Assembly (NCBI GenBank): GCA_040954595.2
Contig: CM082586.2
Span: forward strand, 8,029,337 to 8,093,336
Reading direction: 5' to 3'
Source of the DNA: Balanoglossus misakiensis
Taxonomy: Eukaryota > Animalia > Hemichordata
DNA: 64,000 nucleotides
Below are positions 34,901-37,900 of this stretch, in pieces (the first letter of the stretch is position 1; every line of letters starts with the position of its first letter). A model generated the notes under the pieces. It did not search any database and was not told the DNA's origin. It saw nothing but the letters and a program-made list of their open reading frames with translations. The translations under genes and the position numbers were made by a program.

Positions 34901-37900
34901 TATTTTGCTTTAAAACATAGAAGGTCTCTTTAGATCAGCTTTAATGATGGGCATGCGCACTCATGTAAGCAACCTCTGATTATGGTTGTACATTTAAATG
35001 ATAATAAAAGTGTGCCACACCTATTTATTTAGCCGCCCATAGCTAGAGTACCCAACTATTGCGATATACGCACATTCAGATTAAAATTTCTGACATATGT
35101 TATCATCTGTCAACTTTGGATAAGCAGAAGATTGAAATATGTCATCGATCAAAAATATGCTAAAAGTGGCAGCTATTTGGGCTTTAATGATAAAAGAAAA
35201 CACCACTCACTATAGATATACAGTTTCTAGATTGCAACAATTATAACTGTGTGTAAATTGTTTCCACTTCTTAGGAATACTTTCATTTTATGCTAATATT
35301 TACAATATTCTGATTTATATTGATCATTGATTATCTATTTTATTTATTTTATTAATTTGTTTGTTATTTATCTCATCAAGGTGTTCAGCATAATCTTGTT
35401 AATATAATAGATTTGCAAATTGCATTTTCTGTTTGCTAGGGTTTGCCAGGGTTAATGTCTGTCTGTCTTTCCTTGTGCTTAAGTAAAATCAGTAAAACCT
35501 TGCTTTGAGCAGTGACATTACAAATACATGGCTGTTTTTGCAAAATTCTAATATCAAACATTTGAAGTGAATTATCATCATACACTGATGATTTGACTGT
35601 CAGAAGTTGGAAATCAATTTCAAATGTTACAACATTATCAGCAAGTTTTCACTGATGAAGTGCGTGGATATGTATGGCTCTGCATTAGTGCAATTTGAAG
35701 GCAAAATGTTATTTTGTGTTGTGAATCATATGCTTTGTTTGTTTGTTTGTTTATTTGTTTGTTTGTTTTCAAGTATACGGTAGGCAAGGTGATTGCAATG
35801 CCACTTTGTGAAAAGCTTTTTAATTTATTGACACACCAACATGCATACCACGTGTACACAGTTCACATTTCACAACTACCAAAACTGATTTTCATTCATT
35901 CACTTTTTCTTAATCCGAATCAACATTTTTTACTATCAAGACACATGTTTACAAATTCCTTTTTCTATAATTTTTCCGTTGATCTGTGAATATTTTCAGA
36001 TAATTGTTCTTGAACTTTGAATTTAACGTGATATATTTATGACAACACAAAAATTACCAAGAAATGTTTCATTTCTCATTACTTGTTTGATGCATTACTT
36101 GTTTGATGCATACCATAGTTACCATGGTAACTGATAGGCGATGATTTGATCAGTGAGTGTCATATCGATACATTCCAAAACCAACAGAGCCATTTATACA
36201 ATACTCAAATCAGTTTTTTTTATCACGTTGTCTCTGTCTCTAATCAATCTTTTCTCCTTTTGTCCATTGACTTGAATCTCTACAAACAAAACATCTACTA
36301 TCGCTGTACTACCACAACCACCACCCCACACACCAATGATACACGGTACTTTATCTAGGTCAAGGACATGAGTTGGATGTCAGTAGCTGGCTGGGTAAAA
36401 GTTGGTGGTTCGAACCTTGGAACCAATCGGTAGGTGAAGATGTGGCGATGATAGCAACAACATCACCCATCGGAGACTACCCACATAGACCGTTTTAGTT
36501 CACTCAGTTACGCTTTTCGCTTTCACAAAGTGCACTTTAACATGCTACGAGTACAGTCAAAAAACCCTCACTGTACCACCCTTGCTGCAGATACACCTCA
36601 GTGTTTATGACAAACATTGATTGGTTGCTGAAAAAATTCTGAAAATTTTGCATTCACTTAGCTGTGTTTCACCAAGTATTAGAGATGTTTTCCTAAAACC
36701 TGTAATTTAAACATAACAATAGTGAAACTACATCCATGTCTAGGTAGCTTACACTATTGTATTCATGTTGTAAGCTTGTTACAGGATAATTTCATCAATC
36801 AAATGTCAACATCTTAATTCAATCCGTTTGTTCAATTAACAGATAAAATACACCTGATTGCCTGAACACAAACAAGATAGCATCAATTATTTGTTGGAAG
36901 TCAGGGGGGGGGGGAAACAACAATTTGCAAATAATACAACTTGCCAAATTTTCCAAGGCATCATGGGAAGAGAAATGTTGTAACTTGCCACTTTGTGATG
37001 CCAGCCTTGGCAAGTTTTCTGCTCAGCCCTTCCATCCCTGTTTCTGTTTGCTGTAGTCCACTCCCACTACTTAAATCAATAGGGTGAGCCCAAACTCTGG
37101 AGACAAAGAGGGTGGTATATGTGAGTTCATTTTTGCCTGTACTGGTGCGAACTGCTTCATGTTGATATTCCTGAGAGAAGCCAGCTATCCAGCATGACTG
37201 TGTTTGTGTTTGTGTTTTGTGTGTGTAAATGCCATGTGGGTACTGGCCTCTCTCATACATGTCTTGGCTCTGCAAAATAATCAGTTGTAGTCTTATGCCT
37301 GCTATCTGCCTGCATTCATCAATTTTGCTGACTCAGGTCAAGCGTATGTCCTGGATAGGTGTTAGAGGCTGGGTGAGAGACGGTGGATCCAAACTGGGCA
37401 CTAATCGGTTAGTAGATTACCTACAACAGATAACACGACTCGAAATTCGATAATTTCACTCCACAATGAAATGAAATCAGGAGAACCTTAGTATGTTGAT
37501 AGAGGCTTGCAGATGACAAGATTTGATATTTGAAGAATAAGCACAAATGAAATTTGATAATCTGTAAAATTTATCAATAGTATACCGTACAGTCGTCACT
37601 ATTAATATCGTTTCAGCATTTAGCAGTTACATTTTTGTTTGTTTGTTTTTGTTCATCCATTCACTACTAAAATCAAGACCAAACTTAATTTATCTTAAAC
37701 TTTTAACTAGACAGCACACTTATGTTATTATACACTTTCTACCATGTCATATGGAGTTCATGTGTAAGATATTATTTCCATACAAACTGTACAATACATA
37801 TGCAAATGAGAGTACAAAGTGCCAATGAAGTGCATACATATGTATGTACTGAGAGACTGAAGCATCCTATTTCAGTTGCAGGTTCTGATAATTTGCATAG

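Follow-up and report, generated by a model that had tools for sequence, protein, structure and literature searches.

Structure-guided choice between duplicated exons is known mainly from insects and from a few vertebrate genes. In FGFR2, both arms of the stem reportedly lie in the inter-exon intron, ~700 nt apart, and the ISE/ISS-3 element is said to be GU-rich. The FGFR2 IIIb/IIIc exons are the closest described system to the intron analysed here: in the available parts of the sources, the IAS2/ISAR stem activates IIIb and represses IIIc (PMC2471395), a stem being tied to mutually exclusive exons, the upstream one favoured and the downstream one repressed (PMC2471395, PMC2777236). These parts also place a GCAUG beyond the 3' arm; in our intron, an AGCAUG, a common motif in this gene and predicted to be paired, lies 49 nt beyond the corresponding arm. 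For Drosophila srp exons 4.1/4.2, the available text describes two inter-exon elements that pair outward in a crossing, pseudoknot-like manner, each looping out one exon, with conserved flanking-intron elements as docking sites (PMC4691838; PMC6071210). The choice of Dscam1 exon 6 is steered by intron-exon pairings; as far as the available portion goes, an intronic element (the balancer) base-pairs to a downstream variable exon beside another long-range helix, within a multi-domain structure of a large cluster with a docking site and selectors, and promotes exons downstream of its target (PMC12962786). In human ATE1 exons 7a/7b, competing helices among R1-R5 hide the splice signals of one exon, R3 competing for two pyrimidine tracts, according to the part of the paper available (PMC7797038). 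Duplicated, swappable PFK exons are known from human PFKP (bioRxiv 10.1101/292813) and from the three-exon cluster of Drosophila Pfk (PMC6071210), at positions other than those reported below, and the available parts of these sources describe no RNA structure. General bridge and loop-out models are outlined in the accessible parts of PMC11802352, PMC7404189, PMC9013439 and PMC10790352.

The intron compared here with these systems belongs to a 22-exon phosphofructokinase (PFK) gene in the window (the whole 64-kb stretch of Balanoglossus misakiensis DNA that was analysed). Each set of alternative exons yields an open frame of 827 aa, and exon 4 finds its top full-length matches at 90% in Ptychodera flava and at 86% in Saccoglossus kowalevskii. 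The gene carries three either-or pairs, of exons 14, 18 and 20:

36359..36429, forward strand: PFK exon 14A, 71 nt, first member of a duplicated either-or pair
36430-37336, forward strand: intron between 14A and 14B, GT-AG
37337..37407, forward strand: PFK exon 14B, 71 nt, second member; ~37356-37410, including the donor, is predicted to pair with segment X (below)
41687..42288, forward strand: second either-or pair, exons 18A (41687-41748) and 18B (42227-42288)
45217..46306, forward strand: third either-or pair, exons 20A (45217-45319) and 20B (46204-46306)

Exons 14A and 14B are identical at 47/71 nt (66%), and 22 of the 24 aa of the 14A peptide match the A form of the Ptychodera flava RefSeq isoforms. 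The annotated genomes of Ptychodera flava and Glandiceps talaboti share all three pairs, and their RefSeq isoforms take a single exon from each; the PFK proteins of the two species are XP_070534866-72 and XP_077990358-63, respectively. Exactly one form of exon 14 occurs in 7/7 models of the former and 6/6 of the latter, a count that rests on the annotated models of these relatives and not on reads of B. misakiensis. Length, homology, frame and single use per model, the features expected of mutually exclusive tandem-duplicated exons, were all found for 14A/14B. Identity, frames and the relatives' models therefore bear out a preliminary description of this DNA, which had taken the two exons for a duplicated either-or pair. 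Strict coupling among the three pairs is absent, because 7 of their 8 possible combinations occur in the Ptychodera models. One Saccoglossus model contains both exon-20 forms.

For each pair, inclusion of both exons or of neither shifts the frame and leads to an early stop; with 14A and 14B together, the stop falls at aa 527, within 14B. NMD alone can therefore explain the either-or proteins. Incompatibility between U2 and U12 spliceosomes was rejected, as the splice sites of the 14A/14B pair (donors GTAGGT and GTTAGT, AG acceptors) include none of U12 type. All three pairs lie within the C-terminal regulatory half of PFK, and the counterpart of exon 14 in an alignment with human PFKM is 448-471, where R471 is a fructose-2,6-bisphosphate contact; for these reasons, exon choice may tune the allosteric control of glycolysis. 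Among the proteins compared, only those of the two acorn worms have the exon-14 peptide in two forms, and a search of this region for further exon-14 variants returned 3 proteins among 4 candidates. A metagenome scan with exon 13 gave 17 loci at 49-73% identity, among which no acorn-worm locus was recognised; one exon-14-like stretch was present in six of the 17 and two such stretches in none.

The preliminary description had further claimed that the 14A/14B intron zips from end to end into a long nested duplex, interrupted by bulges and G-U pairs, through twelve complementary segments. All twelve are present and nested, GATAGCA starting at 36450 rather than 36449. The two inner pairs stand, as a predicted stem of 30 bp with a probability close to 1, hereafter the core stem; three middle pairs, considered below, do not.

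36550..36583, forward strand: 5' arm of the core stem, 30 bp, predicted long-range pairing
37108..37143, forward strand: 3' arm of the core stem, predicted to pair with 36550-36583

In the bare intron at 37 C, the pairing probability was 0.84-1.0 for AGTACAGTCAAAAA/TTTTTGCCTGTACT, except at its single mismatch, and 0.86-1.0 for TACCACCCT/AGGGTGGTA; in all contexts and at all temperatures tried, the core stem reached 0.99-1.0. Wobble pairs and bulges were seen in it, as had been described. Measured as the best local duplex between the intron halves, the core helix was matched by 0/200 shuffles (Gumbel p 0.0014), and its arms are mutual best partners among 100 segments of the 25-kb gene body. 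The fold of the whole intron (-240.9 kcal/mol, z -2.05) was equalled or bettered by 1/20 shuffles. All structures reported here are equilibrium predictions in which co-transcriptional order and proteins are ignored, and the statistics come in part from our own simplified duplex scorer, under three scoring settings. On these predictions, the 14A/14B intron contains a real long-range helix with complementarity above chance.

Within the 64-kb window, the core arms have no second copy, although two other inverted repeats do recur there, and the core flanks share no direct repeat, i.e. no target-site duplication (TSD). The missing TSD, which had been said to set the duplex apart from the MITEs of the window, is thus confirmed for the core, and its arms, single-copy as far as the window extends, do not match terminal repeats of a multi-copy transposon there. 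Inverted repeats at 46489-48718 and 34866-35187 have further copies in the window and appear transposon-like. The Rfam scan of 35000-39000 gave a single weak minus-strand match far under threshold, and nothing within the intron. An alternative partner of the 3' arm before exon 20A (37100-37123/45091-45110, 19 bp) was rejected, as this pairing is at chance level (4/25 shuffles).

The predicted core stem has two features of an FGFR2-type stem, complementarity above chance and both arms in the inter-exon intron. It differs from that of FGFR2 in belonging to another gene in another phylum, and its pairing, of ~30 bp in the stem, is predicted to continue into the downstream exon. This extension involves the stretch between the 14A donor and the 5' arm:

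36488..36547, forward strand: segment X, complementary to exon 14B and its donor, adjoining the core stem; at chance level against 14A

In context at 37 C, the X:14B pairing had a probability of 0.67, plus 0.22 in a second register; the values at 22 C were 0.41 and 0.08. Between 14 and 42 pairs were expected over six contexts, the top per-nucleotide value among 15 introns tested. When anchored on the core, with X taken as the 65 nt before it and Y as the 65 nt after it, X:14B was equalled by 1/200, 7/500 and 9/500 shuffles on three measures, and X:14A was at chance level. Synonymous recoding of 14B reduced the pairs formed in context from 30.4 to a mean of 0.7, none of the 45 recoded exons scoring as high. 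In the recoding test, each of the four cross pairings came out better than recoded exons (z -0.5 to -2.1), and each of the four paralogue controls worse. The first 120 nt of the 14A/14B intron, tested unanchored, gave z -0.74 (p 0.23); two of the 21 other introns reached p 0.04 in this test. Among the 12 other introns in the in-context comparison, which took those of 200-1200 nt and left out nine outside this range, one, the constitutive intron 5-6, formed 28 pairs with its downstream exon. Because X:14B was found post hoc, we rate these predictions as suggestive of a genuine intron-exon pairing in the 14A/14B intron. Control of exon choice by competing structures, also proposed in the preliminary description, would then survive in an altered form, a segment of the 5' part of the intron pairing with exon 14B itself.

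We tentatively prefer, with somewhat less than even confidence, a reading in which the core stem acts as a bridge that nucleates X:14B, hides 14B and favours 14A, while NMD clears the errors. The two intron arms would form the stem and fold away ~520 nt, with 120 nt left between donor and stem and 193 nt between stem and acceptor, and the stretch just after 14A would then pair along 14B and its donor, tilting the choice to 14A. Judged from the geometry of this state, the branch point and acceptor of 14B would be enclosed within a loop, and ~60 nt would separate the 14A donor from the intron beyond 14B. If the spliceosome or SR-type factors claimed 14B before the extension formed, 14B would be used instead, possibly aided by two features around 14A:

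36214..36358, forward strand: AG-free zone before 14A, 145 nt, in which a CTAAT resembling a branch point (at -116) precedes a pyrimidine tract
36429..36481, forward strand: hairpin over the 14A donor, -18.5 kcal/mol, equalled by 2/200 shuffles in a window picked after the hairpin had been seen

Transcripts with both exons or with neither would be shifted out of frame, stop early and be cleared by NMD. The structure would thus likely bias the choice of exon and not enforce it. Any effect of the stem or of X:14B on splicing is one that we infer, and the donor hairpin counts against a hidden 14B favouring 14A, as it persists in the X:14B state (probability 0.72) and opposes the use of 14A. By analogy, the PFK intron may work like the systems above, of which we regard it as a candidate member. 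Compared with the Dscam1 cluster, it serves a two-exon pair whose target exon is predicted to be hidden; compared with ATE1, where R3 competes for pyrimidine tracts, X would pair with the exon body and donor.

A rather unlikely alternative gives the structure no role in splicing at all: the core would be either the remnant of an inverted repeat or a helix arising by chance, X:14B a by-product of the search, and factors would choose the exon, with NMD cleaning up. Frame shifts alone do account for the either-or protein models, as noted above, and X shuffled in context paired as well in 2/40 cases, but the pairing is specific to 14B over its 66%-identical twin. How common such structures are in this gene bears on both sides. 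Of 453 intron windows, 3% contain local hairpins at z <= -3.2. Long-range stems are predicted in the two other inter-exon introns as well, matched by 3/120 and 5/120 shuffles on the best-local-duplex measure:

41819-41853/42057-42099, forward strand: predicted stem of the 18A/18B intron
45345-45410/45742-45809 and 45830-45873/46064-46106, forward strand: predicted stems of the 20A/20B intron

At z <= -2.5, a cut chosen after seeing the data and with 12 shuffles per intron (long introns being represented by 453 nt from each end), long-range stems were predicted in 3/3 inter-exon introns versus 3/21 others (Fisher 0.01). The stems of these three other introns are equal or stronger, which suits a structure without a role; one of them comes from a multi-copy element, while the window holds no further copy of the other two. 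The occurrence of stems in every inter-exon intron speaks against it, as do the wobbles and bulges of a core that lacks a TSD or a second copy in the window. The constitutive introns 12-13 (33780-33992) and 15-16 (39425-39653) contain strong 18-bp long-range helices, single-copy in the window.

The core stem could also serve solely as an FGFR2-like bridge for protein sites, RBFOX-type and CELF/ESRP-type proteins activating 14A and repressing 14B with no need of exon pairing. We consider this unlikely. The candidate sites lie just beyond the 3' arm:

37164..37263, forward strand: hairpin H3, whose stem contains GCAUG (37192-37196) and whose loop is UG-rich
37199..37228, forward strand: UG-rich run, 10 UG within 30 nt, a density unequalled in introns 2-21; candidate protein site

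The stem would bring the GCAUG and the UG-rich run from 762 to ~170 nt off the 14A donor. The GCATG follows the core after 49 nt and precedes 14B by 145 nt, and a TGCATG is found 16 nt past the second stem of the 20A/20B intron. In the available parts of the sources, FGFR2 has a GCAUG downstream of ISAR (PMC2471395) and egl-15 uses neighbouring UGCAUG and GUGUG elements (PMC2777236). Nevertheless, the motif is AGCAUG (37191-37196) instead of UGCAUG, and the prediction has it paired within H3, a hairpin whose strength is equalled by ~3% of this gene's intron windows. These introns contain 0.82 GCATG per kb, the 18A/18B intron has none, and the motifs were spotted post hoc.

Improbable, in our judgement, is a symmetric exon-masking switch, in which one stem would carry at its mouth X, antisense to 14B, and a second segment, antisense to 14A; the crossing duplexes would exclude each other, the exons would act as their own docking sites, and the design would recur at pairs 18 and 20. 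If it were true, a single acorn-worm PFK would tune its regulatory half via three RNA switches. The second segment is as follows:

37144..37205, forward strand: segment Y, with modest complementarity to 14A in isolation, predicted to be held in H3

The topology of X:14B with Y:14A would be srp-like, whereas in srp the docking sites are conserved flanking-intron elements (in the part of the literature available) and in PFK the partners are exons; moreover, only X:14B is favoured in the PFK ensemble, and the core stem links both selectors. In isolation, Y:14A was equalled by 9/200, 12/500 and 20/500 shuffles, and Y found no match in 14B. In context, its probability was 0.00 at a cost of +8.7 kcal/mol, Y staying in H3, and Y:14A was therefore rejected as a stable state at equilibrium. 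No docking site for X or Y was seen within ~260-290 nt of flanking intron; the full flanking introns were scanned for the core arms.

Replication of the exon-B pairing at the two other pairs is weak. In all three pairs, no more than 60 nt separate the A donor from the start of the best 70-nt partner of exon B. The X:B pairing of pair 18 formed 8.9 pairs, with 1/45 recodings as high, and 0.6 pairs in another context; its shuffles gave p 0.11-0.19. The mirror pairing Y18:18A was at chance level on shuffles and was rejected. For pair 20, the duplex measures ranged from 0/200 to 44/300 shuffles and the unanchored first-120-nt test gave p 0.007; in context, 2/21 recodings were as high, the pairing being weak there because X of this pair is mostly held in an intronic hairpin.

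The end-to-end zip itself is a very doubtful explanation. It would bring the donor of 14A too near the branch point of 14B, or bury both, so that the inter-exon intron could not be spliced; steric exclusion is expected when a downstream branch point lies within ~50 nt of the upstream donor. Some outer pairing was predicted in the bare intron at 37 C, namely 36433-36456/37300-37320 at 0.4-0.5 and an 8-bp helix, 36473-36480/37287-37294, at 0.81 (0.71 before 14B is transcribed). The outermost GATAGCA/TGCTATC reached 0.5 at 37 C but 0.05 at 20 C in the bare intron, and 0.00 once the flanking exons were added. The outer zip alone costs 6.5 kcal/mol in context, where its probability is 0.00, and gave 0-3 expected pairs in the five contexts measured. 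The middle pairs AACATG/CATGTT, CAGTTACGC/GCATGACTG and TACCCACAT/ATGTGGGTA all had probability 0 in the bare intron at 37 C; several of the middle and outer segments fold locally instead, into the hairpins at 36429-36481 and 37164-37263. Bringing the 14A donor beside the 14B acceptor, as had been proposed, by forcing all the claimed helices raises the ensemble energy in context by 20.6 kcal/mol. As the middle pairs are at 0 and the full zip is this costly, steric exclusion by the fold finds no support. A duplex of the first with the last 200 nt, a window that omits the inner part of the core, gave z -0.38, with 21/60 shuffles equal. Across 24 introns, compared over 200 nt per end or half of a shorter intron, the end-to-end duplex likewise failed to single out 14A/14B among the PFK introns. 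Steric exclusion based on sequence was rejected too: the AG-free zone before 14B is 46 nt, the intron holds 47 AG, and no branch-point-like word (YTRAY) occurs within 70 nt of the donor.

Long imperfect intron-exon duplexes are typical of ADAR recoding sites, but the idea that X is an exon-complementary sequence making 14B an A-to-I editing substrate, and not a splicing switch, is scarcely credible, with no A-C mismatch evident at a coding adenosine in the X:14B duplex and an identical 14B peptide in the four Ptychodera flava models carrying 14B.

If the preferred reading, a bridging stem with pairing of X to exon 14B, is true, it adds a deuterostome invertebrate to the structure-guided cases, and in a compact variant, with the alternative exon itself as the docking site. 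Stem and exon pairing are directly testable, because two relatives with annotated genomes have these three pairs as well. A literature search on hemichordates, RNA structure and mutually exclusive exons returned only a general review, and one on PFK and mutually exclusive exons gave no title on RNA structure among the best 25 of 36 matches. Nothing was found on the structure of this gene or on acorn-worm either-or exons in searches with subscription papers mostly outside their coverage.

Within the loop closed by the core stem, 36713-37005 occurs as two differing alleles, with 29 other letters and 27 gap letters; the allele contigs derive from about half of each of two out of three DNA runs, possibly of the window's source sample, and leave the arms mostly uncovered. 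Repeat-like read pile-ups were seen at ~35,000-35,300 and ~38,800-39,200, off the core arms (themselves mostly uncovered).

The AG-free zones before 14A (145 nt) and 20A (578 nt, ~44640-45216) compare with 16-78 nt for the 22 other acceptors. By their lengths, these two zones suggest distant branch points for the upstream exons 14A and 20A. The zone before 20A includes a long CACT/CA repeat. The 20A/20B intron folds as a whole at z -3.34 (0/20 shuffles), and its two long stems leave ~140 nt unfolded from donor to acceptor; a model of compaction may suit this intron more than the one between 14A and 14B. Upstream of PFK, the window contains two tandem forward-strand genes (~5000-6800 and 9275-11900) that by eye resemble short-chain dehydrogenases/reductases.
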